Below are positions 6,866-57,254 of a stretch of 64,000 nt of DNA, piece by piece; the first letter of the stretch is position 1, and the number at the start of each line of letters is the position of its first letter. Made by a program: the position numbers and the translations under genes. Origin of the DNA: Thermoprotei archaeon (GTDB lineage Archaea > Thermoproteota > Thermoprotei > Thermoproteales > B15-G16); NCBI GenBank assembly GCA_003649205.1, contig QMRC01000003.1, positions 64,001 to 128,000 of the forward strand, read 5' to 3'. Below the pieces are notes generated by a model, which saw nothing but the letters and a program-made list of their open reading frames with translations, did not search any database and had not been told where the DNA came from.

Positions 6866-6882
6866 TTCAGTGGTGATTTATC

Positions 6883-7701
6883 ATGCACTTTCTCATTCGT
6901 GAGGCTTCTGTTGGTGATGTGTCTGACATAGCTAGTATCAATAATGAGGGGTTTCCGTATCTGGAGGAGGTTCCTCCTGAGTTCTTTAGGTGGTTAATAC
7001 TTCACGGTATAGGTAGGTTCTTGGTGTGTGAGGTTGATGGTGAGGTTGTTGGTTTTGCTCACTTCGATGCTATTGGCGATTGTGGTGTTATCTATAGGAT
7101 TGGTGTTCGTGAAGACTTTAGGGGACGGGGTATTGGTTCTGCTCTACTTCATGAGGTTGAGAAAGTGCTTAGGGGTCTAGGCGTTAGTAAGGTCGTTGCT
7201 TATGTTGCTAAGAGGAGGGGGTCTGCTCTTAGTTGGTTTCTTAGTCGTGGCTACCACATTGATCATAGGTTGGGTTCCGTCACATATACTTGGTGGGTTG
7301 CTGGTGAGTTAAGTCCTTTAAAAGAGGTGTGTGAGGTTACTGGTCGAGATCTAGGTGATGTATTGAGTGTAGGTGGTTGGAGGAAGCTATTCTGGTGGTA
7401 TCCTGACTTGGGGAAGTACCTCAAGTACTTGAGTACAGCACCTGGTCGTGTGTATGTTGATAAGGAGTCTACGTGTCTAGTTCACGTGATTTCTTATGGT
7501 TGGGTCTCCTACGTTGAGTATGTGGTGCATCGTGGTGTTGATAGGAGGAGAATAGTTGATGTAGTTTGCTCGGCAACAGAGTTAGCTGCGAGAGCTGACG
7601 ATGTACCGTACTGTGAGGTACCGCTTGAGCCAGAGGGTTTACTAGGTTCTGTATACCATGGTACTTGGGTTGAGGTACCTGTCATGAAGTACATTAGCTA
7701 G
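6883..7701 (+). CDS. GNAT family N-acetyltransferase
   Basis: IREAS..D, motif A V.EDFRGRGIGSALL, FLSRGY. C-terminal half not recognised. Confidence 0.85.
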   Translation: MHFLIREASVGDVSDIASINNEGFPYLEEVPPEFFRWLILHGIGRFLVCEVDGEVVGFAHFDAIGDCGVIYRIGVREDFRGRGIGSALLHEVEKVLRGLGVSKVVAYVAKRRGSALSWFLSRGYHIDHRLGSVTYTWWVAGELSPLKEVCEVTGRDLGDVLSVGGWRKLFWWYPDLGKYLKYLSTAPGRVYVDKESTCLVHVISYGWVSYVEYVVHRGVDRRRIVDVVCSATELAARADDVPYCEVPLEPEGLLGSVYHGTWVEVPVMKYIS

Positions 7702-19224: not shown

Positions 19225-21285
19225 GTGAGTCTAATGAGGTCGCAAGTAGGTATCAGTAAGTGGGTTCTGGTTACAATCCTAGTGGTAGTAATTGTAGCAA
19301 TTGTAGCAGCTGTAATCACTACATATCTCTACTATAGCGCTAGACCATCTAAACCTACAGCACCTCCACCACCCACTAAACCTACCAAACCTACTAAACC
19401 AGCTATTGTGATTAAGGACTTTAGAGGGAAGACTATTGAGTTAGCTAAACCTGCTGAGAGGGTTGTAGTTCTTCAGTCATACTGGGCTGAGGTAATTGTA
19501 GCTCTCGGTAAGGCTAATACTATTGTTGGTGTTGGTAGCTACGTACCTTACGATGAGTACCTACCCCCTGAAGTCAGGGACCTACCTAAGGTTGGAAGCA
19601 TATTTAGAGGTGTCAATGTTGAGGCTATAGCTTCTCTGAAGCCAGATGTCGTAATTATGGACTTCGGCTATGGTAAGGCTGATGAGATTATTAAGAAACT
19701 TGAGCAAATGGGGATACCTGTCATTGGTCTCTTCATTAGAGGTATCGAAGATGAGATAAAGGCAATTGAGATCTTGGGTAAGGTACTTGGTGCTGAGGAG
19801 AAGGCTAAGAAGCTTATTGAGTTCATCAAGACTAGGTACGGTAAGTTGAAGGAGCTTGGTGCAAAGGTACCTGAGAGTAAGAGACTTAAAGTTGTTTTCA
19901 TCAGTGGTTCGAGTGTTCTCAAGGGTGGTGCTCTTTCGCTCTATGCAAATGCTTCGTGGGGTAGAGCTGTAGAGGATATAGGTGCTGTCAATGTGGCATT
20001 ACATGAGTTCCCAAATAAGAAGTGGCCTAAGGTTGATTTCGAGACTTTAGTGAAGTGGGATCCAGATGTAGTATTCATTACCTCATCTGTGAAGTACGTA
20101 CAGAAGGTACTGGATAAGGTTGCTAGTGATACTAGGTGGCATGTTCTCAAGGCTTACAAGAGTGGTAGAATCTACGTAGTTCCTTGCTGGGGTAGCATTG
20201 GTGGAGTTCTTGATTGGGGTCCGAGAGACATCATTGGTAGAGAGTACATTGCGAAGCTCCTGTACCCGGACGTGTATAGGGAAGTCGACTGGAGGGGTGA
20301 TATGGAGTATCTGCTCGAGCACTTCTACGGTATTGATATACCTAAGCAGGCATTTGCTGCGTACAGTATTGAGTGGAAGGAAATTGTCGATCCATTGGGT
20401 AATGTGGTTAAGGTACCGAGAAAGGTGAAGAAAGTAGTTGACTTGATATCGTACCTCTCTGACCTAGCTCTAGGTGTTATGGATAGACTCGTTGGTGTGT
20501 CGAAGTATGCTAAGAAGAATCCTGTACTGCTGAAGGTGTATCCCAAGATCAAGGACATACCTAGTCCAGGCTCCTCGTTTAAGGTGAACATAGAGGTGCT
20601 TGAGATGTTGAGACCTGACGTCGTCATAATTTGGCCATATAAGCCAAGTGTTGTTGAGCAGATTGAGAAGCTCGGTATTCCAGTTGTGAAAGTTCATCTC
20701 TATAGTTACGATGATGTCAGGAGGTTGCTATGGTGTTTAGGTGTGCTGTATGGTGTGGTCGATAGGGTCAAGAAGATCATTAACGATATGGATAACCTAC
20801 TGATGTTAGTTCGAGAGAGGATAAAGGACATACCATCTGAGAAGAGAGTACGTGTGCTGTATCTATGGAGTAAGCCTACTAGAGTTCAAGGTGGTAGAGG
20901 TACCATGAATGATGCTATTGTTCTCGCTGGTGGTGTAAATGTTGCAGCAAAGGAGTTTCCAGACAAGAGCTATGTAACTGTTGACTTTGAGCGTATTGTT
21001 AAGTGGAATCCAGATATGATAGTGATTTGGTGGTGGGCTAAGTACGGTCCTGAGGATCTCCTCAAGGATCCTAAGTGGAGTGTCGTTAAGGCGGTTAAAG
21101 AGGGTAGAGTGTACAAGGAGCCTTACTACGAGCATTGGGGCCCAGATTTAACCTTATTCGTGCTGTGGTTAGCGTGTAAGATGTACCCAGATAGGTTTAG
21201 TGACATAAACTTCATGGAGATAGCTAATAAATACTACATGGAGTGGTATGGTATACTGTATTCTGAGGTTGCTAGCGCTGGTTAG
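19225..21285 (+). CDS. ABC substrate-binding protein with two tandem BtuF/FepB-type domains
   Basis: Class III-like signal (G/ISK + hydrophobic stretch), Pro/Thr/Lys linker, then two copies of the D..G..V.I...P.RVV / N.E.I..L.PDVV / D.E.++W.PD / AVK.GRVY pattern. Confidence 0.9.
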   Translation: MSLMRSQVGISKWVLVTILVVVIVAIVAAVITTYLYYSARPSKPTAPPPPTKPTKPTKPAIVIKDFRGKTIELAKPAERVVVLQSYWAEVIVALGKANTIVGVGSYVPYDEYLPPEVRDLPKVGSIFRGVNVEAIASLKPDVVIMDFGYGKADEIIKKLEQMGIPVIGLFIRGIEDEIKAIEILGKVLGAEEKAKKLIEFIKTRYGKLKELGAKVPESKRLKVVFISGSSVLKGGALSLYANASWGRAVEDIGAVNVALHEFPNKKWPKVDFETLVKWDPDVVFITSSVKYVQKVLDKVASDTRWHVLKAYKSGRIYVVPCWGSIGGVLDWGPRDIIGREYIAKLLYPDVYREVDWRGDMEYLLEHFYGIDIPKQAFAAYSIEWKEIVDPLGNVVKVPRKVKKVVDLISYLSDLALGVMDRLVGVSKYAKKNPVLLKVYPKIKDIPSPGSSFKVNIEVLEMLRPDVVIIWPYKPSVVEQIEKLGIPVVKVHLYSYDDVRRLLWCLGVLYGVVDRVKKIINDMDNLLMLVRERIKDIPSEKRVRVLYLWSKPTRVQGGRGTMNDAIVLAGGVNVAAKEFPDKSYVTVDFERIVKWNPDMIVIWWWAKYGPEDLLKDPKWSVVKAVKEGRVYKEPYYEHWGPDLTLFVLWLACKMYPDRFSDINFMEIANKYYMEWYGILYSEVASAG
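19372..19401 (+). repeat. Imperfect 9-bp tandem repeat encoding the PTK-PTK-PTK-P linker
   Basis: cccactaaa-cctaccaaa-cctactaaa-cca. Confidence 0.7.
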
Positions 21286-21292
21286 TGGGTGA

Positions 21293-22309
21293 GTGTCCTT
21301 GAGGAAGCTAGTACCAAAGCTATTTGTTTCTTTTTCTCTACCGCTAGCAATCTTGATCTCTCTCCTACTGGGTCACTATAGGACCGACCCTAAGACCGTA
21401 CTTGAGGTGGTGTTGTCAGCTGTATTCCCTCACCTTATTCATAGTCCACCTGAGACAGTTCGAGTGATTGTACTGCTCTATAGAGCACCTAGAGCTATTG
21501 CAGCAGCTATTACAGGAGCTGTCCTAGCTGTTTCTGGTGCCGCTCTGCAATCAATGCTTCGTAACCCCTTAGTTGATACCTACATTCTGGGCATAGCTTC
21601 AGGTGCTGGGTTCGGTGCTGCATTAGCTATAGCGTTCTTACCGCCAACAGTACCGGTAGAGTTGGTTGCTTTTTGTTTCTCACTCATCGCATTCATGCTG
21701 GCATTTGTCCTAGCTTGGAGTTGGGGGAGAGGTGGGGTAATAGCTCTTGTCCTCTCTGGTGTCATAGTTAATGCATTTTTCTCAGCAGCTCTAGCACTTG
21801 TTAAGTACTTAGCTCCAGATCCTCATAGATTGGCCTCAATAGTCTTCTGGTTGATGGGTGATATTGGTCAAGCAGCGTTTTGGTACAAGATTATGCGTAT
21901 GTTAGCTATATCACTACCCTGTATACTCGTTATCTGGTTTATGAGGTGGAGACTTAATGTACTATCTCTTGGAGATGAAGAGGCTAGAGCACTTGGTGTG
22001 AATCCAACTGTGGAACGAGGTTTGTTGACTGCTATCTGTGCTCTCATGACTTCAGCTACTGTAGCCTACACCGGAATCATCGGGTGGGTTGGGCTACTAG
22101 TGCCCCACATAGTTAGGCTCATGTTGGGTACGGACAATAGGGTGGTGGTGACATACAGTATTGTGTTTGGTGCTACGTACATGGTACTAGCTGATGACTT
22201 AGCTAGGTGTCTCACGAGTGAGGAGCTACCGATTGGTGTTCTCACGACGATCATGGGTGCACCACTCTACATATACTTACTTAGGAGAGCAAGTGGTGTG
22301 TGGAGATGA
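21293..22309 (+). CDS. FecCD/BtuC-family ABC permease
   Basis: R.PRAIAA, LRNPLVDTYILG..SGA, LGDEEARALG, GIIGWVGLLVPH, ELPIG. Confidence 0.95.
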   Translation: MSLRKLVPKLFVSFSLPLAILISLLLGHYRTDPKTVLEVVLSAVFPHLIHSPPETVRVIVLLYRAPRAIAAAITGAVLAVSGAALQSMLRNPLVDTYILGIASGAGFGAALAIAFLPPTVPVELVAFCFSLIAFMLAFVLAWSWGRGGVIALVLSGVIVNAFFSAALALVKYLAPDPHRLASIVFWLMGDIGQAAFWYKIMRMLAISLPCILVIWFMRWRLNVLSLGDEEARALGVNPTVERGLLTAICALMTSATVAYTGIIGWVGLLVPHIVRLMLGTDNRVVVTYSIVFGATYMVLADDLARCLTSEELPIGVLTTIMGAPLYIYLLRRASGVWR

Positions 22310-23097
22310 GGTGTGTACTTCGGGTAGAGGGACTTAGCTACACGTACTCTCGTGATCTAGTTGCTCTACGTGATGTGGAGTTTGAGGTGTATAGTGGAGA
22401 GGTAGTGACAGTACTGGGCCCAAATGGTGCTGGGAAGACTACGCTTCTCAAGTGCATACTTAGACTTCTCGAACCGAGAGGTGTAGTGTACATTAATGGT
22501 AAGCGTAGATGGGATGAACTTAGTTCTAGAGAGCTCGCTAAGTATTTCGGCTATGTACCTCAGACACATCACAGCATATTTGCGTACAGGGTACTTGACT
22601 TTATATTAATGGGTAGAGCACCTCACCACACGATGTTCTCACTACCTTCTCGAAGGGATTACGAGAAAGTTCACGAGGTAGCTAAGTTACTTGGTATCGA
22701 GGATCTTCTCGAGAGGTCTATTACTGAGTTGAGCGGTGGTCAGATGCAGTTGGTACTGATTGCAAGAGCGCTTGTACAGGAAGCAAAGGTATTACTCCTC
22801 GATGAACCAACGGCACACCTAGATATTGTCAATAGTGTACGTGTGCTTTCAGTTGTTAGGAAGTTGGTGAAGTCGGGTAGAGTAGATGCAGCTATCATGG
22901 CAATGCACGATCCTGTTTTAGCAGCTAGTTTCAGTGATAAGGTGCTGCTAATGAGTAGGGGGCGTGTTGTGGCTTGCGGTAGTCCACGTGATGTATTGAG
23001 ACCTGAGGTACTTAGGGAGGTCTATGGTGTTGACTTCGTTAGGTTTGAGCACTGTGGTTTTGTGGTAGTTGTTCCAAGAGCTAGTACTGAGGTTTAG
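22300..23097 (+). CDS. FecE/BtuD-family ABC ATPase
   Basis: GPNGAGKTT, LSGGQ, LLDEPT, MHD, L..VYG. Confidence 0.95.
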   Translation: MEMRCVLRVEGLSYTYSRDLVALRDVEFEVYSGEVVTVLGPNGAGKTTLLKCILRLLEPRGVVYINGKRRWDELSSRELAKYFGYVPQTHHSIFAYRVLDFILMGRAPHHTMFSLPSRRDYEKVHEVAKLLGIEDLLERSITELSGGQMQLVLIARALVQEAKVLLLDEPTAHLDIVNSVRVLSVVRKLVKSGRVDAAIMAMHDPVLAASFSDKVLLMSRGRVVACGSPRDVLRPEVLREVYGVDFVRFEHCGFVVVVPRASTEV

Positions 23098-24054
23098 TGA
23101 CTTGGACTTAGCATCACTAGTCCTGTCTTACCTCAGGTATGTAGCCATCTCCATCACACTGATGTTCCTTGGCGTTCTCGTTCTGGGTATGGTCTACGAG
23201 CTAGGTATTTCGAGAATTCTGTGTAAACCCTTCAGGTCGCTTATGTTACTAGCGAGGTTACCACCAGACTTAGCAGTTCTCATACCTGCCGCCGTAGTGG
23301 ATGTTAAGGTTGAGCAAGCATACCTCTCTGAGTTAAGGACTGGAGGCGTCGTAGGGGATGATGTTGTGATTGCGTATGTACTGCCTAGGAGACCCTTTAC
23401 GCTGATCACCCACCTCATAGGTACTACATACCTGTTGTGTTGGTTGCTCTCGGAGTTTCTCTGGGACTGAGGTACCTATTGCTAGCACTTGTTCCGCAGA
23501 TCATAAGTTTGCTAGTCGCTATTGTGTACGGTAGATCTAAAGTACATGGAATTTACACGGAGCCTAGTCGTACTATTGAGGTTAGTGCTTCCTATAGTTT
23601 ACGCGAGGTACTTCGTAGGTCTCTGCACTTAGCAATTCATGCTCTCTCGAGAATTGTTCCTCGTTACATAGTTGCTACTGCGTTAGTAGTAATCTTCACG
23701 GTACTGAATGTAACTACTTACCTCAGTAATGTAGTAACTCCATTGCCTCACACATTAGGTTTTTCGTACCATTTCGTTATTGTTGTGTGTACAGGTATTA
23801 TTAGTCCGGTTACTGCTGTATTCCTAGTAGGTGAATTTGTTAGATCTAGTTTCCTCAGTTGTAGAGAAGCGCTTCTCGTACTGGTGCTGACTAGGTTTCT
23901 CTTCATTGTGTTATCTGATTATCCTCGACACGTAGTTCCACTATATCTCTCACTCTATCCTCCTAAGCTAGTTGTGAAATTGGTCGCTATTTCGCTCTCG
24001 ATATCAATCACCTCGTTGCCTCTGCAGCTATTCCTCGTTTACTTGCTGACGTAG
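23069..24054 (+). pseudogene. Frameshifted membrane protein (nucleoside-recognition/Gate-domain-like)
   Basis: Two overlapping hydrophobic ORFs (23069-23470, 23437-24054) join into one plausible protein (...THL[I]RYYIPVVLVALG...) if one base is restored near 23417. Confidence 0.6.
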
Positions 24055-26054
24055 ATTACTCTGTACTCTCCATTAGTCATCTCAGCTAACTTCTCAATAA
24101 CACTCATTCCAATATTGAGTGAGTACTCTCCTCGAACTTCGAATATAGTGAGCTTACACTGGAGTTTCTCAAGTAATGTGGCTATAGTGCGAATATCTTG
24201 ATCTAAGTCGCCGGTCAGCAGTACATTTACCTTACCATCACTTACTAAGTATATGTGGACTCGAGAGAGCGGATACCTCAGTCTATAGAGCTTAGCTACG
24301 TTGTAAGCCTCCAGTAATCCGTGGAAGAGAGGAGTTGATCCCCCTACCTCAATTTCCCTGAGGAGTTCGAGAGCCTTTGCATAGCATCTCGTAGGTGGTA
24401 GAATACACGATGCACTTCTTCCTCTGAACACTACAATGGCTATGCTAGATCTTGTAACGTAGCTCCTAGTCGCTAGCTTCTCAACTAGCTCCCTAGCTAG
24501 TTGAATTCTGTTTAGTGCTAACATGCTACCACTAGCATCCAGCACCACTATATTGAGTACAGGTACCTTAACTCTCCTAACTCTTACCCTAATGTCTTGA
24601 CTCGGGATCGGTAACTTAGTTGTGAGGCATCTTGAAACTGTAGCTCTAAGTGTAGCAACTAAGTCTATATCCCTGTACTCACTGTCGTGAACGGGTACTG
24701 TGTGGTAAATGACACGACCTCTACCGACTGCTACTAGAGTTACACTACATTCTCTTGATGTACGTCCCTTCGTTGGTGTTGTTGGTGTTAAGTGTAATTC
24801 ACGGATAGTTGATGACTTAGTTATTGTTGTGGGTAATGAGGTTAGTCCCTGTGATGTAGGTGTTAGGTCTCCTAGTTTAGCTATAATGCTATCTTTACCG
24901 CTGATGCCAGAGCCAATAGCTACATGTGTATCGCTAATATTTACCCTAGAACTGCTTCCTGCTGCGTGCTTATGAGAGTGCTCAGTACTTAATTCCTGTT
25001 TAGTACCGAGTACTTCATTGAGGACTTTCTCTAGAAGCTCACTTGCTTGTCTAGGGTTTTGAGGTGCAGTTGTCTTGATTCTATGTGGTAACGCTAGCTC
25101 CATAGCTTTCTTCACATCCTCTAGTTCGACACGTGTTCTACCATCTAGTGTAGCAATAGCTTTAGCTGTCTTAACTACAACTATGTCGGCTCTATGGGTT
25201 CTTACACGTAGCTTGACCATGGTCTCAGCAACGAGCTTCAGTAGGTCATTGTCTATATGAACTTCCCTAATTAGTTCCCTAGCTCTAGCAACTGTTTCAC
25301 GAATTTTCCTCTCCTCACTCTCAAACTTCTTAATAAAGGATAAGGGATCTCTATGAAATTCCTCAACTCTCCTAACGATCTCAGCTCTTTCCTCAGGATT
25401 CATTGATGCAGAAACATCGACAAAGAGTCCAAATCTATCCAGGATCTGTGGCCTTAATTCACCCTCTTCAGGATTCATACTACCAACAAGTACGAAGCGT
25501 GCTGGGTGTCTAAACGAAATTCCTTCACGTTCAACTATGTTCCAACCCGTAGCTGCTGCATCTAGTAGGAGGTCAGCTATGTAGTCATCGAGTAGATTAA
25601 CTTCGTCAATATATAGGATGTTTCTATTAGCCTCTGCTAGTATACCTGGTTTAAACACTACTTTACCTTCTCTCAGTGCACGCTCAACATCTATGGTGCC
25701 AACTAATCGATCGACAGTTACATTAAGTGGTAAGTCGATAACCCTCATTGGTTTGTACTCAATCTCGAGCTTCTCACCACGAAGCCATGCTTGGTAATGC
25801 TCTTCACACATCTCATAAGGGTTAAGGGGATTGCAGTTAAATGGACAACCCTTCACAACAGGTACTTCAGGTAGTATCTGTGCTAGTGATCTCACAAGTG
25901 TAGTCTTTCCAGTTCCTTTATCACCACACAGTAGTACACCACCAATTGTTGGATCAACAGCAACTGCTAGGAGTGCAAGTTTTGCCTTCTCTAAACCTAC
26001 AATAGCTGAGAAGGGGAAGTAGATCCTTCTACTGCCCTGAGACAGATACATCAC
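24039..26054 (-). CDS. chlD: Class I chelatase ChlD/BchD-type subunit (ChlI-like AAA+ domain + linker + vWA)
   Basis: FPFSAIVG, GDKGTGKT, GILAEANRNILYIDEVNLL, MNPEEGELRPQILDRF; vWA MIDAS DASGSM, GSTPL, VSDG. Confidence 0.9.
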   Translation of the reverse strand: MMYLSQGSRRIYFPFSAIVGLEKAKLALLAVAVDPTIGGVLLCGDKGTGKTTLVRSLAQILPEVPVVKGCPFNCNPLNPYEMCEEHYQAWLRGEKLEIEYKPMRVIDLPLNVTVDRLVGTIDVERALREGKVVFKPGILAEANRNILYIDEVNLLDDYIADLLLDAAATGWNIVEREGISFRHPARFVLVGSMNPEEGELRPQILDRFGLFVDVSASMNPEERAEIVRRVEEFHRDPLSFIKKFESEERKIRETVARARELIREVHIDNDLLKLVAETMVKLRVRTHRADIVVVKTAKAIATLDGRTRVELEDVKKAMELALPHRIKTTAPQNPRQASELLEKVLNEVLGTKQELSTEHSHKHAAGSSSRVNISDTHVAIGSGISGKDSIIAKLGDLTPTSQGLTSLPTTITKSSTIRELHLTPTTPTKGRTSRECSVTLVAVGRGRVIYHTVPVHDSEYRDIDLVATLRATVSRCLTTKLPIPSQDIRVRVRRVKVPVLNIVVLDASGSMLALNRIQLARELVEKLATRSYVTRSSIAIVVFRGRSASCILPPTRCYAKALELLREIEVGGSTPLFHGLLEAYNVAKLYRLRYPLSRVHIYLVSDGKVNVLLTGDLDQDIRTIATLLEKLQCKLTIFEVRGEYSLNIGMSVIEKLAEMTNGEYRVIYVSK

Positions 26055-27576
26055 CCCTCAGCTTCTTAATCCATTCAAGAGCTTCAATAGCTGGTTTAGC
26101 TCTTTCTCTCCAGGGCTGAACATCATCAGCTGTGTATATCGAGACTTCACCTCCCTGTACACTCACTCCAGCGACCTCACCTTCCAGCAGGGACTCTACC
26201 TCCATTCTAGCTAATTGAATCCCCTTGAGTACGTTGAGATCTGGTTTCCAAAGACCACGTTCAACTGCTTCGAGAAGTCTACGAGTGAGTTCCTCGAAAG
26301 CATATGGATTGTTCTCCATGAACCACTTCCTCATACCTTCATCCAGTACGTACTTCTCAGCTATTCTATTCCACACTTCGTCAGGTACAGCACGTGTAGT
26401 TGCTTGCCACCCATAGAGATGAACTATCTTCTTCATGAGTTCAGCAGCACCCCTATACCCGTGCTTCTTCATTTCCTCAATCCACCTAGGATTAAGGAGC
26501 TTTGCATACACTATCCTTACCAACTCTTCGCTCAGGGTACGGATCTGAGGTCTTGAGCTATCTCTGGTATCCACTACCAAGTTAAGCGGTTCCTTACCAC
26601 TAACTACCTTTGTAGTGACGTGGAAACCACCTTGGTAAGCGAAGTAGCCGCAGCAATTCGTTGGGTCATGTTCATCGCTAACATGGTTGCGTACAACGAC
26701 CTCTACTCTCGATAGCTGAAGGGTGAGTAAGTGAGGTATGGGTACGCCGTATCTTTTCCTCGTGTACGCATACATACCCCAGTGAATCCATACCTTAGCT
26801 AAGTCGTCTTCGTTCTTCCACGCGGATGCAAAGACTGCATAATTCACACCAGCACCATAGGCACCTGGTGGTGCACACCAAATACGTGCTCTAGCTAGTT
26901 CTTCAACATCGATGTTAGGTAGATTGAGTTCTCTCAACCTCTCAATGAACTCTAGGTAATGCTTCTTCGGGTAGTTCATCTCTAGAGGTTCATCAAGAGT
27001 AATAACTTTCTCAATAGCTTCATCTATCAAACTTATGTAATTCGGTAGATTATCACGGACAATACCACTAATTCTTACAACAACATCAATTCTAGGTCGA
27101 CCAAGTTCTTCAAGTGGGATAACCTCAATTCCCTTGACAACACCATCAGAACCCCACACCGGTCTAACTCCAAGTAGATAGAGTATCCTCGATATCTGCT
27201 CACCATCAGCCTTATATGCATCGATACTCCATAACACCTCACCTACGCTCTCAGGGTATCTACCATGTAGCTCAAGAAACTTCTGCAGAAGTTTATTAGC
27301 TGATTCAACGCCAACTCTCCAAGCAGCAGGTGTCGGTATCTTTCTCGGGTCGATGCTGTAGAAGTTCCTTCCAGTAGGTAAGATATCTATTCTACCACGG
27401 GTAAGCGACCCAGCTGGACCGGGCTCTACATAGGAGCTACTTAGACCTTTCTCAATACCTCTAAGCTCGTTATCACCACATTCTCTAATCAACTCAGCAA
27501 GTCTAAGAGCTATCTTAAATGCTCGTAGTACACGTTCTCTAGTCTGATCATCCTTAAACTCAATCGTCTTCATCAC
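26029..27576 (-). CDS. cobN: CobN/ChlH-type chelatase large subunit, C-terminal half
   Basis: YVEPGPAGSLTRG, LPTGRNFY, ELGRPRIDVVVRISGI.RD, LLNPRWIEEMKKHGYRGA. Confidence 0.92.
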   Translation of the reverse strand: MMKTIEFKDDQTRERVLRAFKIALRLAELIRECGDNELRGIEKGLSSSYVEPGPAGSLTRGRIDILPTGRNFYSIDPRKIPTPAAWRVGVESANKLLQKFLELHGRYPESVGEVLWSIDAYKADGEQISRILYLLGVRPVWGSDGVVKGIEVIPLEELGRPRIDVVVRISGIVRDNLPNYISLIDEAIEKVITLDEPLEMNYPKKHYLEFIERLRELNLPNIDVEELARARIWCAPPGAYGAGVNYAVFASAWKNEDDLAKVWIHWGMYAYTRKRYGVPIPHLLTLQLSRVEVVVRNHVSDEHDPTNCCGYFAYQGGFHVTTKVVSGKEPLNLVVDTRDSSRPQIRTLSEELVRIVYAKLLNPRWIEEMKKHGYRGAAELMKKIVHLYGWQATTRAVPDEVWNRIAEKYVLDEGMRKWFMENNPYAFEELTRRLLEAVERGLWKPDLNVLKGIQLARMEVESLLEGEVAGVSVQGGEVSIYTADDVQPWRERAKPAIEALEWIKKLRGDVSVSGQ

Positions 27577-27577
27577 A

Positions 27578-29914
27578 TCACCTCCTTAGGTACTTTGAAC
27601 ATACCTCATGAAGTATAACCTCAAGAGTTGACCAATCGAGATCAGAGGACGAAGTACCTACCTCAAGTAACTTCTTCAAAACCTCAACAGCTATCTTATC
27701 TAGTAGCTCGAGAACTCTCCTATTAGTGGTACCTAGTACCTTGCAGTACTCACTCGGTTTCCTAAGGAGCTCATCATAGTTAAGACCAAGGTACTCAGCT
27801 ACTGCTCTACGTATTGATGGCCAGCTAGATGTATCATACCTCATAATTACGACTACGGTTTCAGCAAGCTCGTCGCTATCAGTTGGTGTCTTACCAAATA
27901 CATGCAGTCCCTTTTCTACCTGAGTACTCTTAATGAGTTCTAAGTACTTATGGAGTTCAGATACGATTTCATCCTCAGGTAAGTCTATCTTGAGAGGAAT
28001 ACCTAGCTTCTTGATCCTGGACACTAGTTCCCTATACAGCTCACTAGCACGTGATGTATCACTGAATCTACGAGCTCTCTCATACTGTTCCAGTAATTCA
28101 TCGAGTTCCTGGAGCGCTGAGTCAGTGAACATCATAGGTGGGTACATGTGGTCTATAATGATAGCGTAGCCACGTCTCTTAGCTATGACACCCTCCATAG
28201 GATTAGTCACGATGTAGATGTAGAGAAATGGTACGTCATCAATCGTTATCTCTGGCCAACACATAGGTGATAAGCCAACACCTTTTCCCGGTCTAAACTC
28301 GAGAGTGCCGTGCGTACCGAAGTGAATCACTACGTCAGCTCTAAATATCCTTGTAATCCATCTGTAGACAGCAAGCCACTGATGTGGTGGAGGAATCCTC
28401 GGGTTATGAAGTATCTTACAGACTCTACCATCACAAGCTGAACCTGCACACCCAAACTTAGGTTGAGGGATGATGACCACATTACCGAACCTAATTCCAG
28501 GAACGATGAACTTACCCTCGTAAACAGCACCAGCAAAAACCCTATCAACTTCACCACCTAGGATATCTCTTGGATCCCCCCACTCCTTAATCATCACCTC
28601 TCTAACACGTTCAGGTAATTCACTGAACCACCTCATGTACGTATCGAGATCTACAGAACCAACACAACCACCACGCTTAACAATGTCATCAGGTGAAGTC
28701 CATCTAAACTCACTCGTAGCTCTCTTCTCAAGCATCAACTCAATTAACTCCTTACCACTCTTCGGAAGCTCACCATCACCTAGGTAGTAACCTAACTCCT
28801 TCAACCTATGTAGAAACCTAACCAAACTCTCAGGAACGTCGAGACCCATAGCAACACCAATTGTTGCCTCAACTTGCTTACAAGGAGGATTATTGAGAAC
28901 AATAGCAATTCTCCTTTCACTAGGAGGTTTACGTCGAAGCTCAATCCACCTCCTAACTCTCCTAGCAATGTACTTCACGTGTGGAGAGAAAACCTCATAG
29001 ACTTTACATCCACCAACCTCCCTAGCACCACACAAGAAGATAGGCTCTCCAATACCATCGACTTCAGGCATAATAACTTCCCATACCTGAGCCATACTGG
29101 AAATACCTTGCTCGCTAGCAAGCCACTCCTCAACAGATCTATACGACTCCTTAACTACCTTGAGGACAGGAACACCAAGACTCCTAAATACATCCTCACA
29201 ATCCAAGTAAAAACTGAGGAAGGATAATATCAAATCAACAACAGGTCTACCATCCACCATAAAGAAGGTACGTACAGTATCAGCTACCGAGGGCTCACCA
29301 AGTACACCTAACCTATGGACACCAGGTGTAAAGACAGATACAACACCTAGCTCCTCATCCTCTAAAGCCTTGATCAACTCCACTACAGGAGCAACATCAC
29401 CATAGAGCCACCGAGACCTGTAGAATAGGATCCCAACGAGAGGTCTAGTTGAGTAGGGGTACTGCTCAAGGTACTGCTCTAGATCTGTGAACGTACCTAG
29501 CTCAGGATGCCAAATACCATGCCAGGGTACAGGTCTCGGATCAGGAGGTTCCTTAGGGTACTTACCTAAGATCCAGAGCAGGTACTGTATGAGGTACCTC
29601 AGATTCTCAACACCACCATACCTAAAGTACTGAATAGCTCTCTCAACCACGTGACTAGGTCCTTTACATAGATGCGAAGTAGCTTCAGAAGCACCAATCA
29701 CGATGCTACACCTATCAATGATCTTACTCAACAATGGAGGTACTTCATATGTATACAGGAACAATACCTCTACGTCTCTTAGCGCATGCTCGGGGATCTC
29801 GGTACCGGGAGAGAACACAGCTACGGTGCTACCGAATTCACGAGCAAGATCACGTAGCACAGAGAGAGCAGGATTGCCGTATCCAATGACAAAGACTAGC
29901 GAAGGCATATGCAA
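27578..29914 (-). CDS. cobN: CobN/ChlH-type chelatase large subunit, N-terminal half (start probably ATG 29908)
   Basis: GIWHP, MPEVDG, LRRKP...RIAIVL.N.P, HNPRIPPPHQWLA.Y, HFGTHGTLEF.PGK, GLHVFG. Confidence 0.92.
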   Translation of the reverse strand: MHMPSLVFVIGYGNPALSVLRDLAREFGSTVAVFSPGTEIPEHALRDVEVLFLYTYEVPPLLSKIIDRCSIVIGASEATSHLCKGPSHVVERAIQYFRYGGVENLRYLIQYLLWILGKYPKEPPDPRPVPWHGIWHPELGTFTDLEQYLEQYPYSTRPLVGILFYRSRWLYGDVAPVVELIKALEDEELGVVSVFTPGVHRLGVLGEPSVADTVRTFFMVDGRPVVDLILSFLSFYLDCEDVFRSLGVPVLKVVKESYRSVEEWLASEQGISSMAQVWEVIMPEVDGIGEPIFLCGAREVGGCKVYEVFSPHVKYIARRVRRWIELRRKPPSERRIAIVLNNPPCKQVEATIGVAMGLDVPESLVRFLHRLKELGYYLGDGELPKSGKELIELMLEKRATSEFRWTSPDDIVKRGGCVGSVDLDTYMRWFSELPERVREVMIKEWGDPRDILGGEVDRVFAGAVYEGKFIVPGIRFGNVVIIPQPKFGCAGSACDGRVCKILHNPRIPPPHQWLAVYRWITRIFRADVVIHFGTHGTLEFRPGKGVGLSPMCWPEITIDDVPFLYIYIVTNPMEGVIAKRRGYAIIIDHMYPPMMFTDSALQELDELLEQYERARRFSDTSRASELYRELVSRIKKLGIPLKIDLPEDEIVSELHKYLELIKSTQVEKGLHVFGKTPTDSDELAETVVVIMRYDTSSWPSIRRAVAEYLGLNYDELLRKPSEYCKVLGTTNRRVLELLDKIAVEVLKKLLEVGTSSSDLDWSTLEVILHEVCSKYLRR

Positions 29915-52086: not shown

Positions 52087-53589
52087 CTGAGTAAGCTACC
52101 TGAAGAAATTAGCAGAGAGAGTAGAGACACTAAAACAAAGAGATTCATAATCTATGGAATCGAAGAGAAACCACCACTCCTTACAGCACTGTTCCTAGGA
52201 TTCCAACACTACCTCACAATGTTTGGAGCTACAGTCGCAGTTCCGCTACTCCTAGCATCACTAATGGAGCTAACGCCAGAGGATACAGCAAAGCTAGTAT
52301 GTATTCAATTCTTCTGTGCAGGTATTACTACACTACTGCAAACGTGGAAAAAGGTAGGTAGTGGGTTACCTATCGTACAAGGATCCTCATTCTCCTTTCT
52401 AGGACCTCTAGTAGCTATCATAGCTACCTGTAAGAGCATGGGGATTAGAGGTAGCGAAATACTACTCTACACAACAGGAGCTATCATAGGTGCTTCATTC
52501 TTTGAGATCGTGATTGGGTACAGTGGATTAGCTGGTCTATTGAGAAGGTACATAACACCTGTATCTATCGGGCCAACGATAATAGTTATTGGGCTCTCAC
52601 TAGCTGATGTAGGAGCTTCACAGGCAAGTGGTAACTGGGGTCTTGCACTACTTACAGTGGTACTCATTGTGCTGTTTAGTCAAGTACTTGGCAGGAGGTA
52701 CAGGATATTCATGCTGTTCCCAGTAGTACTCGGTGTCATGATCAGCTACGTAGTTGCACTACTACTCTCGATAACTGGCTTCCTAAAACCTGGTGATCCA
52801 GGGTACGTGAATTTAAGGCCACTCATGGAATTACCTTGGTTAAACATACCGAAGCCATTTCCATGGGGTTTACCTAAGTTCGTACCAGCGTTCATCCTCG
52901 GTATGTTAGCTGCTTACGTAGCATCGATGGTTGAGTCTATAGGTGACTACCACACAGTATGTAGGGTGAGTGAGGCACCACCACCAGACGAAAAGACAAT
53001 ATCCAAGGGTCTCGGTGCTGAAGGCCTTGGCTGCCTAATTGGTGGTATCTTCGGTTGTGCTGGAGGGTACACGAGTTATTCAGAGAACATAGGTGTCATT
53101 GGGTTAGTTAGGGTAGCTAGTAGATACGTCATTCAGCTAGGTGCGGTATTCATGCTGCTAATGGGGTTCTTCGGTAAGTTCGGAGCACTCATGGCGACAA
53201 TTCCTAAGCCAATTATTGGAGGTCTATATCTCGTAGTATTCGGTATGATAGCTGCTGTAGGAGCTTCGCTGCTTACGCTAATAGACTTGAAATCACCTAG
53301 AAACCTACTGATCGTAGGCATGTCACTGTACCTCGGTCTAAGCGTACCTATGTGGATGAAAGGTTACAACCCATACGGTGTTAAAGGTAGAGGAGCAATC
53401 GTCGCACTGCTACCTCCACAACTAATGTGGTTAGGTGAAATAGTTGAGATTATACTCGAGACAGGTATGGCCGTTGCAGCTATAGTCGGCATCGTGCTAG
53501 ATAACCTGATACCAGGAACACCGGAAGAACGAGGATTGACACATCCTGAATGGTGTGGTAAGGTAATGAACAAGAGAGAGAACAAGTGA
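52087..53589 (+). CDS. NCS2/NAT nucleobase permease (uracil/xanthine type); start probably CTG at 52087, upstream of the ORF-track ATG 52219
   Basis: YGIEEKPP..LGFQH motif upstream of the first ATG; LPIVQGSSF, ESIGD, SENIG+I....VASR signature. Confidence 0.92.
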   Translation: MSKLPEEISRESRDTKTKRFIIYGIEEKPPLLTALFLGFQHYLTMFGATVAVPLLLASLMELTPEDTAKLVCIQFFCAGITTLLQTWKKVGSGLPIVQGSSFSFLGPLVAIIATCKSMGIRGSEILLYTTGAIIGASFFEIVIGYSGLAGLLRRYITPVSIGPTIIVIGLSLADVGASQASGNWGLALLTVVLIVLFSQVLGRRYRIFMLFPVVLGVMISYVVALLLSITGFLKPGDPGYVNLRPLMELPWLNIPKPFPWGLPKFVPAFILGMLAAYVASMVESIGDYHTVCRVSEAPPPDEKTISKGLGAEGLGCLIGGIFGCAGGYTSYSENIGVIGLVRVASRYVIQLGAVFMLLMGFFGKFGALMATIPKPIIGGLYLVVFGMIAAVGASLLTLIDLKSPRNLLIVGMSLYLGLSVPMWMKGYNPYGVKGRGAIVALLPPQLMWLGEIVEIILETGMAVAAIVGIVLDNLIPGTPEERGLTHPEWCGKVMNKRENK

Positions 53590-53851: not shown

Positions 53852-55126
53852 ATGAGCTACAGTGTTATTCAGCATGTTAAGGTTTCGTGGAGAGGTAAGG
53901 AGTGTAGTAAGTGTAATGTTCCGGATAGGTGGACTGTTGAGGATGGGAATTACGTACTTGGTAATAAGTTCCATCCCGTTGCTGTAATGGTACCACTGGA
54001 TGATGAGGTAGGTAATGAATTGGTGAAGACAGCTATTGAGCTTGGTGTAGCAATAGCTGGTTTCTGTAAGACAGCTAACATAGGGATTGAGAAGGTAGTA
54101 TGTAATGTGCTAGCTAATCCAAACATTAGGTACCTAGTAGTTGTTGGTCACGATACAAGCGGTCATCGTAGTGGTGAAGCTATGATTAAGTTGTGGAGGT
54201 ATGGTGTGGATCCAGAGAGTAGGAGAGTGCTGAATTGCGATGCACCAACGGCCTACATACCAAATCTGCCGCTTGAAGCTATTGAGAGATTTCGTGATCA
54301 GGTAATTGTCATTGATATGCTAGGTGTGACGGATAGGGAGATGCTGAGAAAGGTGATTAGAGGCTGTATTCAGGAACCTTGGAATGCTGTTGAGATTGAG
54401 GTGAAGGGTATTAAGTATAGGTTATTCGATCCTGGTGCATATGACTTAGAGCCATATATAGTCAAGGTAACGAGTAAGGTGAGCGGGGGGTATGTGGAGA
54501 CTCTATCACAGAACCTTACAGTCGTTGTTGCGAGGTCAGTAGCTGATGCCTATAGGGAAGTGATTCGACTAATTGAGAGATTTGGTAGATGTGTTGAGTC
54601 TAGGTTTGGAATTACGAAGGAGTTAATGAATGTCGTGATACACGTACTTGATCCTCTCTGTGATGAAGTACCTAGAGAGTACCCACTTGGTGCTAAGAAG
54701 TATCTTGAGGAGTACTGTAGAGCTATTCTCGAGGGTAGGAGTATTGAGGGTTATGAGTATAGCTATGGTGAGAGGTTGAGGGTTAAGTTCGGTGATCAAT
54801 TGCGAGCTATCGTCGATAAGTTACGTAGTGAACCGAGTACTAGACAAGCTGTTGCTGTGTTCTGGAGTCCTTACGAGGACTTGGTCAAGACAGAGAACCC
54901 ACCTTGTTTCATACTGTGGCAATTCATGATTAGGGATGGTAAGCTACATGCTACGGTGTACATGAGGAGCCACGACTTTAGGAGTGCCTTCGTACACAAT
55001 GTATTTGCCGTTAGAGAGGTAATGAAGTACATTACGGAAGAACTTAAGAGAAGTGGTCTTGACGTTGATCTAGGTACGATAACATTCATTGCATGTAGTT
55101 GCCATGTCTATGAGAACTACAGGTAG
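53852..55126 (+). CDS. Fusion protein: MtrA-like corrinoid-binding domain + thymidylate synthase domain
   Basis: N half: KTANIGIEKVVCNVLANPNIRYLVV.G....GH.SG...YIPNL..EAIERFRDQV..IDM. C half: YSYG.RL, DQL...+.KL....STRQA, PPC, MRSHD..AF..N, HVY. Confidence 0.88.
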   Translation: MSYSVIQHVKVSWRGKECSKCNVPDRWTVEDGNYVLGNKFHPVAVMVPLDDEVGNELVKTAIELGVAIAGFCKTANIGIEKVVCNVLANPNIRYLVVVGHDTSGHRSGEAMIKLWRYGVDPESRRVLNCDAPTAYIPNLPLEAIERFRDQVIVIDMLGVTDREMLRKVIRGCIQEPWNAVEIEVKGIKYRLFDPGAYDLEPYIVKVTSKVSGGYVETLSQNLTVVVARSVADAYREVIRLIERFGRCVESRFGITKELMNVVIHVLDPLCDEVPREYPLGAKKYLEEYCRAILEGRSIEGYEYSYGERLRVKFGDQLRAIVDKLRSEPSTRQAVAVFWSPYEDLVKTENPPCFILWQFMIRDGKLHATVYMRSHDFRSAFVHNVFAVREVMKYITEELKRSGLDVDLGTITFIACSCHVYENYR

Positions 55127-57254
55127 TATTGCTGATGAGATTAAGCAATTCATCGACTATGTTAGGAGCTGTAATGCTAGAGGTCTGATAGTCCTCAGTG
55201 GTGATACAGAACAAGTAATACACGTATTAAGCACACTACTTGGGCACCTAGCTAGACCTATACTCGCATTTACTGATAGTAGGGACCTACGTAAGGTACT
55301 TGCTGTGCATGATATTGAGGTAGCTAGATTTCATGAGCTGACTAGTTACCTAGGTAGGGAGTATAGCTCTGTCATTATGGATTTTAGGTACTTCTTCAGA
55401 CCTAATGCTGTTTCTGCTGCATCAGAGATGATTAGGTGCGGTGGATTCAGTATCTGGTTAACTAAGTCACTTAGTTTGTGGAGTCCAGGTGTCGAGGGTG
55501 GTAGAGGTACCTTCCGTAGGTATTTACTTGAGTCGCTTAAGTTGTGTAGATCAATCCTTGTAGTTGATGTTGATAGCGGTGAGGTGGTATTGCGTAATCT
55601 ACCGAGTAAGTTATCTCGAAGACAGTTCACACCCGAGATCACGAATGTTGATGAGAGGTTGAGAAAGGTACTTTCGCTATGTGCTACTGAGGATCAGTAC
55701 GAGTTCGTTTTGCATAGCTTAAGACTGCTTAGTGACTTAACACTTAAGGTTTTAGTTGGTAAAGGTGATCGTGGTAGAGGGAAGAGCGCTGCTCTCGGTC
55801 TAGCAACTGCGCTGGCTATAGCACATAACTACACTGATGAGATTTTGGTAACAGCACCTTCACCACGCAGTATCACGACATTCATGAAGTTCCTCTGTCT
55901 AGGGCTAGAGAAGCTAGGTATTGATTATAAGACAATTACTGAGAAGGGAAGTGTAGTGGGTATTAGGGGTAGGGGTTTTGAAGTTAGGTATGTTGTCCCT
56001 TGGTTAGCTACTGGTGCTAGATTAACGGTGATTGATGAGGCTGCTGCTGTTGGTGCTGCTCGTGTTAGGAGGTTGTGTGCTAAGAGTAGGAAGGTCATGA
56101 TGGTGACTACAGTCCACGGTTACGAAGGTTCTGGAAGGGTAGCTTCTGAACTGCTAATTAAGCAGCTACCTAGTCCACTAGTCTACGAGTTCAAGGTACC
56201 TATTAGGTACCTATCAAATGATCCACTTGAAGAGTGGCTTTACCAAGTATTCTTTCTCCGAGTAGACCCAATAGAGATACCGAAACCAGAGAATGTGGAG
56301 TACTCTTCTGTAGATCAAGAACAGCTAGTTAAGGATAGGGATTTACTACGGAAAGTCTATGGCTTACTCGCTCTAGCGCACTACAGGAATGAACCTGATG
56401 ACTTAATGACCATGCTTGACGCCCCTCATCACCACATTCGTATACTCAACTCCGATAGAGGAGTTGTAGCTGTTGCGCAGATAGCTGAGGAAGGACCTAT
56501 TCGTGATGTTGAGAGAGCTATTACACGTGGTCTAAGAGGAGTACTGGTCTTAGATAAGTTACTGAGGTACGGTCCTAAGGAAGCTGCTAAGACAAGAGGC
56601 TGGAGAATTGTTAGGATTGCTGTAGTACCTAATCTACAGAGAAGAGGCTACGGTTCAAAACTACTAAACTTCCTCGAGGAGGAAGCACGTAGTATAAACC
56701 TTGACTGGATCGGTGCTATATTCTCTAGAAATGACATCATTGACTTTTGGTTAAAGAACGGGTACTTACCAATCTATGTATCTCCACGATTCAATAAGGT
56801 GACAGGTGAGAAGAACATAGCTGTGATAAAGCCACTGAGTACTAGGATGCGACATTACGTTGAAGAAGCATTGAGGGAATTTAAGGTTAGATTACTTACC
56901 TGCTTAATGAGTGTCTACAGGGATTTAAGTGCTGAGGTTGTTGCTAGTGTATTGAAGAGTATTAGGGTACCTGTGTCAGTGAGAATTGAGTTAACGAGAA
57001 ATCAAGAGAAGAGACTCGAGATGTACTTAAGTAGGAGGATTCTACTTGAATCAGCTATGGATGCTATTTACTTAGCAACATTGAGGAAGTTATGTGAATC
57101 CCCTTCAGTAGATCTAAGCTTCAGCGAATTAGTTGCGTTGATTGCTTATGTACTGCAGGGTAAACCTTTGGACGATGTGGCTGCTGCTCTCAGAACCGAT
57201 ATAGAGACCGCTAAAGCTACTGTAGATAAAGCTGTTAGGAAGCTACTTAGCTAG
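55089..57254 (+). CDS. tmcA: tRNA/rRNA cytidine N4-acetyltransferase TmcA (start probably ATG 55101/55107)
   Basis: GDRGRGKS, IDEAA, TTVHGYEGSGR, PIRY..DPLE, AHYRNEPDDL..LDAP, RIVRIAV.P..QRRGYGS. Confidence 0.94.
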   Translation: MHVVAMSMRTTGSIADEIKQFIDYVRSCNARGLIVLSGDTEQVIHVLSTLLGHLARPILAFTDSRDLRKVLAVHDIEVARFHELTSYLGREYSSVIMDFRYFFRPNAVSAASEMIRCGGFSIWLTKSLSLWSPGVEGGRGTFRRYLLESLKLCRSILVVDVDSGEVVLRNLPSKLSRRQFTPEITNVDERLRKVLSLCATEDQYEFVLHSLRLLSDLTLKVLVGKGDRGRGKSAALGLATALAIAHNYTDEILVTAPSPRSITTFMKFLCLGLEKLGIDYKTITEKGSVVGIRGRGFEVRYVVPWLATGARLTVIDEAAAVGAARVRRLCAKSRKVMMVTTVHGYEGSGRVASELLIKQLPSPLVYEFKVPIRYLSNDPLEEWLYQVFFLRVDPIEIPKPENVEYSSVDQEQLVKDRDLLRKVYGLLALAHYRNEPDDLMTMLDAPHHHIRILNSDRGVVAVAQIAEEGPIRDVERAITRGLRGVLVLDKLLRYGPKEAAKTRGWRIVRIAVVPNLQRRGYGSKLLNFLEEEARSINLDWIGAIFSRNDIIDFWLKNGYLPIYVSPRFNKVTGEKNIAVIKPLSTRMRHYVEEALREFKVRLLTCLMSVYRDLSAEVVASVLKSIRVPVSVRIELTRNQEKRLEMYLSRRILLESAMDAIYLATLRKLCESPSVDLSFSELVALIAYVLQGKPLDDVAAALRTDIETAKATVDKAVRKLLS

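Follow-up and report, generated by a model that had tools for sequence, protein, structure and literature searches.

Two types of enzyme are known to make thymidylate, ThyA and ThyX. Among the ThyA proteins, those of the TIGR03283 type (MJ0757 or the "putative thymidylate synthase" of Methanobacterium) are small archaeal enzymes of about 200 residues, here called mini-ThyA, whose cosubstrate is, as we understand it, listed as unknown in protein databases. MtrA belongs to the Na+-pumping methyl-tetrahydromethanopterin (methyl-H4MPT):coenzyme M methyltransferase. We analyzed a 64,000-nucleotide stretch of DNA from a Thermoprotei archaeon (positions 64001-128000 of contig QMRC01000003.1, our contig C3; hereafter, the window) in which a single open reading frame (ORF) joins an MtrA-like domain to a mini-ThyA domain. 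As a first-pass annotation made from the sequence alone had proposed, this fusion suggests a B12-linked thymine synthesis. The architecture is already present in sequence databases, and it is a clue to an open question rather than a demonstrated new pathway.

The fusion shares with each of the closest described systems some features and departs from it in others. Cys, RSxD, Asn, HxY, and YxYG.R are common to the fusion and to 43 stand-alone members of the TIGR03283 type, which likewise have no canonical C-terminal segment; the fusion differs from them in that it adds an N-terminal MtrA-type domain and a conserved linker and scores 2.75 bits under the family cut-off. With MtrA and its cytoplasmic homologues (5LAA, 5L8X, and 8Q3V) it has in common the fold, the axial histidine, and the nucleotide-tail contacts, whereas it has no transmembrane helix or C-terminal anchor, no Mtr complex in its genome (MtrE was not found), an alanine for Glu54, an altered meander, a sub-equivalog score, and a fused enzyme domain. 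Three-domain proteins made of an MtrA-like domain, ThyA, and PterinBD-DUF4346 (in Aenigmatarchaeota and a KSB1 bacterium) match the fusion in how their first two domains are ordered and in their ThyA catalytic set, and they likewise alternate with ThyX in Thermoprotei genomes, but they end in a PF14251 tail and their MtrA-like domain is devoid of the histidine (present in at most 2 of 71) and of most of the tail contacts. ThyX presumably fills the same cellular role and is near-exclusive with the fusion across relatives, while its fold and cofactor are unrelated. Corrinoid methyltransferase systems (MetH, the MtaABC type, and the Mto-like operon of MtrH, corrinoid protein, URO-D, and RACo in the genome studied here) would follow the same Co(I)/CH3-Co(III) His-on logic as that proposed below; the fusion differs in that its acceptor would be a dUMP carbon in a ThyA fold, to our knowledge not a known corrinoid methyl acceptor, and in that its corrinoid domain is of the MtrA type and not of the DxHxxG type. 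Finally, the phage dCMP hydroxylase 9iqu and the flavin-dependent dCMP monooxygenase 9iqc are small ThyA-fold enzymes (about 217 to 234 residues) that use a non-folate cofactor according to their Protein Data Bank titles; their substrate is dCMP, whereas the fusion has a uracil-type Asn.

Our literature searches found no paper on the MtrA-ThyA architecture or on cobamide-dependent dUMP methylation and none on DUF4346. The word "thymidylate" is absent from the accessible texts of PMC4915002 and PMC9635834, whose supplementary MtrA trees and alignments might show the clade; neither "thymidylate" nor "MtrA" occurs in the accessible text of PMC11237513, and thymidylate synthase is unmentioned in the passages around MtrA in PMC11291895. 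The roles of MtrA-like proteins in non-methanogens are called unclear in the available parts of PMC11291895 and PMC9635834, and the biochemistry of methanogen and archaeal ThyA is described as poorly known and not pursued further in those of PMC9012536 and PMC9931769.

The features of the fused gene are as follows.

53852..55126, + strand: whole ORF, MtrA-like domain plus mini-ThyA; a single ORF of 424 amino acids with an ATG start.
53915..54400, + strand: predicted MtrA-type corrinoid-binding domain, soluble, residues 22-183 (PF04208, 5LAA/8Q3V, Foldseek).
54401..54520, + strand: conserved linker region, residues 184-223 (20-sequence alignment A1).
54521..55117, + strand: mini-ThyA of the archaeal/methanogen type, residues 224-422 (TIGR03283, PF00303, Foldseek).
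54164..54166, + strand: codon of His105, aligned to the MtrA axial cobalt ligand His84 (5LAA alignment; role of His84 from the accessible part of PMC4915002).
54074..54076, + strand: codon of Ala75, the position of MtrA Glu54, replaced in this clade (5LAA alignment; accessible part of PMC4915002).
54905..54907, + strand: codon of Cys352, predicted catalytic nucleophile in a P-C motif (conservation).

Both domain calls of the first-pass annotation are borne out by profile searches. PF04208 (MtrA) matches residues 22-183 (E 3.6e-40; 137.9 bits against a cut-off of 25), and PF00303 (Thymidylat_synt) matches residues 312-422 (E 5.7e-14; 52.3 bits against a cut-off of 24.3), the latter spanning profile positions 107-213 of 266 only. 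Among NCBIfam models, TIGR03283 ("thy_syn_methano") covers residues 224-422 along profile positions 2-196 of 201 with 171.8 bits against a cut-off of 174.55, and the MtrA models match far under their equivalog cut-offs (TIGR01111, 132.2 bits against 249.15). Compared with solved structures by HMMER, the N-terminal part matches 5LAA, a cytoplasmic MtrA homologue with cobalamin (E 1.4e-33), and 8Q3V, a chain of the Mtr complex (E about 1e-33). The translation contains the motif KTANIGIEKVVCNVLANPNIRYLVVVGHDTSGHRSG at residues 73-108 and the motif YIPNLPLEAIERFRDQVIVIDM at residues 135-156, and the ThyA motifs quoted in the annotation can all be read in it, i.e., PPC with Cys352, RSHD (the RSxD motif) at residues 372-375, AFVHN with Asn383, and HVY (the H.Y motif) at residues 418-420. 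No membrane segment was found in the 424-residue protein (top 19-residue Kyte-Doolittle mean, 1.35), in agreement with its earlier description as a soluble protein with no transmembrane anchor.

An AlphaFold2 model computed from the 20-sequence alignment has a mean predicted local distance difference test (pLDDT) score of 88.4 and a predicted template modeling (pTM) score of 0.54; in this model, each predicted domain is confident and the relative orientation of the domains is not. When searched with Foldseek, the predicted N-domain falls on MtrA 5l8x/5laa with a TM-score on target of 0.92, and the predicted C-domain places on ThyA-fold enzymes, its top two matches being the 217-residue phage dCMP hydroxylase 9iqu (TM-score on target, 0.79) and the flavin-dependent dCMP monooxygenase 9iqc, followed by ThyA, MilA, and T4 dCMP hydroxymethylase. 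The linker is part of a QEP..N / Y.L[FY]DPGA block that begins at residue 174, residues 184-223 forming its second half. Q174, E175, D193, and G195 of this block are invariant in alignment A1, and the block is also conserved in the short MtrA-X proteins described below; model confidence is lower around residues 201-220 (pLDDT blocks of 72 and 61). A complex prediction of the MtrA part (residues 20-205) against the ThyA part (residues 215-424) scored 0.00, which counts for neither side.

The corrinoid-ligand site of MtrA offers a direct point of comparison. According to the accessible part of PMC4915002, His84 is the axial ligand, Asn55, Asp17 and Lys52 (backbone), Thr53, Gly57, and Asn64 are further contacts, Tyr18 and Val61 surround the base, and His84, Glu54, and Ile111 form a relay, Glu54 of which its authors tie to conformational coupling with the sodium pump. 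The histidine of the GH motif, which the first-pass annotation had picked out, is His105, and in the HMMER alignment it lies under the axial His of the MtrA-cobalamin structure 5LAA. The same alignment maps His84 to H105, Asn55 to N76, Asp17 to N33, Lys52 to K73, Thr53 to T74, Gly57 to G78, Asn64 to N85, Tyr18 to Y34, and Val61 to V82, all of which are compatible; the sole incompatible contact position is Glu54, which falls on Ala75. The GAIPF/Y-x-EN meander of the MtrA consensus is also altered in the fusion protein.

These positions were then counted in a hidden Markov model (HMM) alignment of the collected fused, ThyA-part, and NCBI-named relatives. Among 36 two-domain MtrA-ThyA proteins, T74, G78, and N85 are each present in all 36, Y34 in 32, and N76 in 31, and the H105 position is His in 30 and Tyr in 4. 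H105 is also conserved in at least 90% of the 20-sequence alignment. The axial His is found in 57 of 58 free short MtrA-like proteins, and Glu at position 75 occurs in 49 of these 58 versus 0 of the 36 two-domain fusions. Judged from this alignment, the two-domain clade retains the predicted ligand site and has dropped the acidic partner of the histidine. From the conserved MtrA contact residues, we infer that this soluble N-domain of the MtrA type probably binds a cobamide in the base-off/His-on form through His105.

The mini-ThyA domain retains the residues expected of a thymidylate synthase, as assigned from the residue roles of E. coli ThyA. C352, R372, S373, D375, N383, H418, and Y420 are invariant in alignment A1, and Cys, RSxD, Asn, HxY, YxYG.R, and the inter-subunit Arg R331 are conserved across 169 ThyA-domain sequences. 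In the four classes that were tabulated, the catalytic Cys is present in 168 of 168 sequences and the uracil-selecting Asn in 167, with Asp in the remaining one, which argues against a dCMP-modifying enzyme. The canonical C-terminal folate-binding segment is missing: the protein ends 4 residues past Y420, and profile positions 214-266 (53 positions) are absent.

Several observations bear on whether the fused gene is real, since the first-pass annotation had raised the prospect of an assembly artefact absent from relatives. About 40 proteins carry both Pfam domains at 29-57% identity in many assemblies, and as the annotation had suspected, the architecture is not unique, these fused relatives being widespread over several archaeal phyla. 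Full-length matches occur at 93%, 55%, and 52% identity in metagenome-assembled genomes (MAGs) labelled Thermoproteales/Thermoproteaceae, and further ones occur in Thermoproteota, Methanoperedens, Methanotrichaceae, Nanohaloarchaea, and Aenigmatarchaeota MAGs; the closest record is from an uncultured Thermoproteales archaeon, and the 93%-identical copy lies in a separate MAG (L007). A 27.9-kb contig of sequencing run X1, possibly the source sample, spans the gene with no differences. In run X2, positions 54414-54454 are bridged by no single piece, which is neutral for either view. The relatives in many assemblies, the L007 copy, and the run X1 contigs across the gene rule out an artefactual fusion.

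Contig C3 (291,428 bases) is a perfect palindrome, without a single mismatch to its own reverse complement. For this reason, a second identical copy of the gene on C3 was discarded as an assembly artefact; half of C3 is an artefact, each of its genes is present in duplicate, and the size and contamination given for the genome are overestimates. A true paralogue is found on contig C8 (G000:C8:66583-68166; L003 1474..3057; L089); it is 527 residues long and 47% identical, has insertions, and is surrounded by a run of same-strand small ORFs with no Pfam match and a Cas4-like PD-(D/E)XK nuclease. This region with the long-form paralogue may be a mobile or viral element. A search of IMG/VR for a viral origin of the family returned just 2 distant relatives, at 23% identity.

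The distribution of thymidylate synthases points to the fusion as the enzyme of this organism. The first-pass annotation had named thyX, folA, and a further thyA as genes to look for, and in the genome that carries the window (G000; 93.8% complete, 4.2% contamination), neither ThyX, nor dihydrofolate reductase (DHFR; folA, DHFR_1), nor an unfused ThyA was found; its ThyA-like sequences are the two fused paralogues. Within the order, ThyX is present in 53 of 62 genomes, and the four genomes with a full-length fusion match (model positions 3/4-423; G000, G001, G002, and G012) are all among the 9 with no ThyX, while G013 has a near-complete match to both domains (model positions 63-423) plus ThyX. 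The survey of the class covered 98 genomes with a completeness of at least 80%, and ThyX was called at E <= 1e-10. The mini-ThyA part occurs in 41 of these, 35 of which have no ThyX, and 49 of the 57 genomes with no mini-ThyA have ThyX, so that both are found in 6 genomes and neither in 8; this anticorrelation is a pattern and not a statistic, as related genomes are not independent. In addition, one relative (P0268, 660 residues) carries MtrA, ThyA, DUF4346, and thymidylate kinase in one chain, and NCBI records label the MtrA-ThyA-DUF4346 proteins as thymidylate synthase, by automatic naming. We consider it highly probable that the gene encodes the thymidylate synthase of the organism. Three genomes (G073-G075) hold both a fusion and a free mini-ThyA. 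In another (G061), a ThyA-domain-only match and the ThyX gene adjoin each other (C39:5264-5770, + strand, and 6550-6969, - strand).

A HMMER search with the ThyA part (residues 215-424) placed the fusion within a wider family, returning 5606 representatives at E <= 1e-3, of which 745 reached E <= 1e-10. The best 150 of these matches comprise 66 proteins with an MtrA-like domain, ThyA, and a tail of at least 60 residues, 8 with MtrA and ThyA and no tail, 30 with ThyA and a tail, and 46 with ThyA alone; the tail was identified as Pfam PF14251 ("PterinBD-DUF4346") in those samples that were scanned. Pfam scans found no PF14251 in the window protein or in its genome. In 71 tailed fusions, the His position is gapped in 52 and holds His in at most 2, and Tyr34 and Thr74 are present in 6 and 13, respectively. 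As read from these alignments, the mini-ThyA is accompanied by a corrinoid domain with predicted ligand competence or by a DUF4346 tail and seldom by both. The conserved fusion to such a corrinoid domain would be a Rosetta-stone clue to the partner of the small archaeal ThyA, and its swap for a PterinBD-DUF4346 domain in the sister class is likewise a clue. Complete genomes of cultured-quality Thermoprotei also encode three-domain proteins, such as one of 461 residues in G104, and have no other thymidylate synthase candidate.

In a FastTree phylogeny of 169 ThyA-domain sequences, the query falls in a 20-member clade of two-domain proteins (support 0.93). Further two-domain groups are interspersed among free forms, and most of the tailed forms fall into a single clade of 74 (support 0.985); deep nodes of this tree are weak. 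In genus g4, most genomes have ThyX together with a short protein that we call MtrA-X. The MtrA-X proteins (G015:C6:269498-270205; P0021, P0027-P0032, P0015, and P0016) are 320-377 residues long and conserve the MtrA module, the linker, and the His (Tyr in P0015 and P0016), and their C-terminal part has lost the ThyA catalytic residues and is itself decayed or lost. Fusions of the MtrA-like domain to other partners were also observed, namely, to a TusA-like domain (PF01206), to a ferredoxin-type 4Fe-4S domain, and to a low-molecular-weight phosphatase (PF01451); these proteins (P0053, P0060, and P0086; P0059, P0066, and others; P0079) retain the T-E-N motif with Glu. A word-based search for short homologues of the ThyA part gave no matches, the same kind of search with the DUF4346 region recovered the same family alone, and a search of a protein atlas gave no usable match.

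One-carbon (C1) metabolism in this lineage has an unusual gene content. Of the 62 genomes in the order, 60 have serine hydroxymethyltransferase (SHMT); the two exceptions are those of the genus of the window organism (G000 and G001), in which GcvT was not found either. Neither methylenetetrahydrofolate reductase (MTHFR), Pterin_bind, MtrE, nor McrA was found in the genome itself, which does encode Mer (458 bits, above the equivalog cut-off), Mch, and a MetE-core homologue. The first-pass annotation had reported no other mtr genes in the window, and none were found there. In the whole genome, which it had proposed to check, MtrE was not found, and an MtrH homologue is present on another contig, where an operon (G000:C1:284299-293557; L088) encodes MtrH, a DxHxxG corrinoid protein, three URO-D-family methyltransferases, an MFS transporter, and a RACo-type activator. 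Mer and Mch are located away from this operon, which looks like one for non-methanogenic, H4MPT-linked use of methyl or methoxy groups in a Thermoproteales lineage. Because both the MtrH/corrinoid/RACo operon and Mer are present, C1 units can enter at the methyl level and reach methylene-H4MPT via Mer. The MtrA-like module is found in 10 of the 62 genomes of the order; Mch accompanies it in 9 of these 10 versus 1 of the other 52, and RACo in 10 of 10 versus 5 of 52.

We propose tentatively that the gene encodes a thymidylate synthase with a cobamide-binding N-domain and a methyl relay to dUMP. The mini-ThyA domain would bind dUMP, and Cys352, going by the conserved residues, would attack C6 and thereby activate C5, as in all ThyA-fold enzymes. 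The Co(I) of the N-domain would first be methylated by methyl-H4MPT or by the methyl-corrinoid methyltransferase system of the cell, and the C5 enolate of Cys-bound dUMP would then attack CH3-Co(III), so that dTMP and Co(I) would be formed with the pterin left unoxidized; a dihydropterin reductase step would thus be unnecessary. The relay Glu of the pump-type MtrA would be dispensable in a soluble enzyme, in which Ala stands at that position. Parallels to this chemistry exist in the S-adenosylmethionine-dependent C5-pyrimidine methyltransferases and in methylcobalamin-to-carbon transfer. We favor the methyl relay because the only known job of the MtrA fold is methyl carriage, because selection maintains the ligand site in precisely those fusions that have no DUF4346 tail, and because the chemistry is simple. 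Also counted for a role in C1 supply are the recurrence of the fusion across archaeal phyla, with fused and free forms interleaved on the ThyA-domain tree; the contrast between His in 30 of 36 tail-less fusions and in at most 2 of 71 DUF4346-tailed ones; the missing 53 C-terminal profile positions of ThyA; the C1 gene content, with a methyl-level operon present and SHMT, GcvT, and MTHFR not found; and the co-occurrence of the MtrA-like module with Mch and RACo in the order.

In its fullest form, this proposal amounts to a third thymidylate chemistry, in which a methyl group would travel intact on the cobamide of an MtrA-type domain, coming from methyl-H4MPT or from a methylotrophic corrinoid system and ending on Cys-activated dUMP, with no flavin and no pterin oxidation; we regard this form as possible though rather unlikely. 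If it were true, the free methanogen ThyA would use a separate corrinoid protein, which would identify its cosubstrate. If the corrinoid is catalytic, B12 would be tied directly to DNA precursor synthesis and a nucleotide carbon would join the corrinoid methyl acceptors; if it is not, the module would still point to a corrinoid function, so far unexplained, that is linked with H4MPT metabolism outside the methanogens.

A number of findings weigh against the methyl relay. The ThyA catalytic set is the same in stand-alone, two-domain, and His-less three-domain forms, including Asp375, which corresponds to the Asp that binds the pterin in canonical ThyA, and this favors a common mechanism with no need for a corrinoid in cis. 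The fusions with no His ligand form a large sister class, and these His-less three-domain proteins are the sole thymidylate synthase candidate in many genomes with no ThyX, e.g., in 8 of 8 genomes of genus g36. The MtrA-X proteins keep the module and its His beside ThyX, which suggests a role of the module that is independent of ThyA catalysis. The presence of Mer and Mch makes methylene-H4MPT available to a classical ThyA, and the co-occurrence of the module with Mch and RACo may only mark a Wood-Ljungdahl/H4MPT background in genomes that are not independent. MtrH does not track the fusion, as only 5 of the 62 genomes in the order have it and only 2 of the 4 that carry a full fusion do, and in the genome studied here it adjoins a DxHxxG corrinoid protein of its own. 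MtrH as a dedicated partner of the fusion was therefore set aside, since neither its distribution nor its operon context supports it. The pTM of 0.54 leaves the domain-domain geometry of the model undefined, and both the cobamide binding and the enzyme activity of the fusion are predictions at the level of sequence. Lastly, the formation of dTMP from formaldehyde and the cell's own pterin in cell extracts is summarized in the accessible part of PMC9931769.

Close behind the methyl relay stands a classical ThyA reaction, itself a possible rather than a probable account, in which methylene-H4MPT or the pterin of the cell would serve as both C1 donor and reductant. The MtrA-like module would then be separate or auxiliary, for instance, a methyl carrier for acceptors such as a MetE-type methionine synthase, a sensor of B12 status, or a scaffold. 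The catalytic residues common to the free, two-domain, and His-less three-domain forms fit this account, as do the presence of Mer, Mch, and a MetE-core homologue and the persistence beside ThyX of MtrA-X proteins with a dead ThyA part and a conserved MtrA module. It leaves unexplained, however, why a ligand-competent corrinoid domain was repeatedly fused and retained across phyla and why loss of the His is paired with gain of DUF4346. It also has to contend with the missing canonical C-terminal folate-closing segment of the mini-ThyA and with a genome in which no DHFR-type gene was found, H2MPT reductases lying outside that search. In print, the prevailing assumption is on its side, i.e., a ThyA with CH2-H4MPT and a MetE with methylcobalamin (accessible part of PMC9723798), and so are the extract data summarized in PMC9931769.

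Further down in probability, the MtrA-like domain might be a relic that has no corrinoid and that aids the truncated ThyA structurally in folding, dimerization, or binding of the pterin tail. Glu54 of the ligand relay is gone from the whole clade, the meander motif departs from the MtrA consensus, and the sister class still has the fold with no ligand residues. We nonetheless find this improbable, since the two-domain class and MtrA-X both retain the His and seven other contacts to a degree that implies selection for the ligand site.

Even less probable is a redox partnership, in which the methylene group would come from the pterin and Co(I)/Co(II) would supply the reducing equivalents in a ThyX-like manner, with tetrahydropterin released; a corrinoid acting as reductant was among the possibilities named in the first-pass annotation. 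We know of no redox role for any MtrA-family protein; an external low-potential donor would be required at each turnover, and the objections raised by the His-less class hold here likewise. For this reading speak the DHFR not found in the genome, the RACo-type reductive activator that is present, and ThyX, replaced by the fusion, which works in this way with a flavin (accessible part of PMC9931769). The first-pass annotation had further suggested that the corrinoid might recycle the oxidized pterin in place of DHFR; the one observation that points to this is the absence of DHFR.

That the protein is instead a different C5-pyrimidine modifier of the ThyA fold, such as a hydroxymethylase-type or hydroxylase-type enzyme or one for some other nucleotide, perhaps with a part in DNA modification, is very improbable, for while 9iqu (0.79) and 9iqc outrank true ThyA structurally, the long C8 paralogue lies among ORFans and a Cas4-like nuclease, and G073-G075 carry both a fusion and a free mini-ThyA, the uracil-pairing Asn is kept in 167 of 168 sequences (Asp in one), the anticorrelation with ThyX is strong, one relative is fused to dTMP kinase, and no other thymidylate synthase was found in the genome.

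Other genes of the window include those of a possible corrinoid supply, and the following features were delimited.

52219..53589, + strand: xanthine/uracil-family nucleobase permease, the upstream neighbor of the fusion (PF00860, E 3.9e-85).
19225..23097, + strand: BtuF/FecCD/ABC-ATPase-like transporter, a candidate corrinoid importer (Peripla_BP_2, FecCD, ABC_tran).
24039..29914, - strand: putative CobN-type chelatase in two adjacent ORFs, with a ChlI/ChlD-like ATPase (PF02514; Mg_chelatase/VWA).

The BtuF/C/D-like importer and the CobN chelatase that the first-pass annotation had placed in the window are thus supported by Pfam matches. The BtuF-like binding protein (19225..21285, + strand) has 686 residues with two Peripla_BP_2 stretches, double the usual size. 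The two CobN-type ORFs (26029..27576 and 27578..29914, - strand) split the PF02514 profile between them, positions 2-662 and 676-1087, which may reflect a natural split, a frameshift, or a sequencing error; the ChlI/ChlD-like ATPase of this locus lies at 24039..26054. Downstream of the fusion, an ORF for a TmcA-type tRNA cytidine acetyltransferase (55089..57254, + strand), when counted from the first TTG, shares 38 bases with the 3′ end of the fusion gene, and its true start may lie further downstream.

No conserved neighbor was common to lineages among 16 loci and the window, the permease is not conserved beside the fusion outside this lineage, and the neighbors in G002, in G015, and in the window were uninformative. 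In three Methanosarcinia-type loci, from Methanoperedens, Methanotrichaceae, and one further MAG (L013 83..2454, L023 2616..6004, and L014 4158..5990), one or two related genes directly precede the fusion. They encode proteins of 374-685 residues with no Pfam match and may represent a conserved unknown partner in Methanoperedens/Methanotrichaceae-type lineages.

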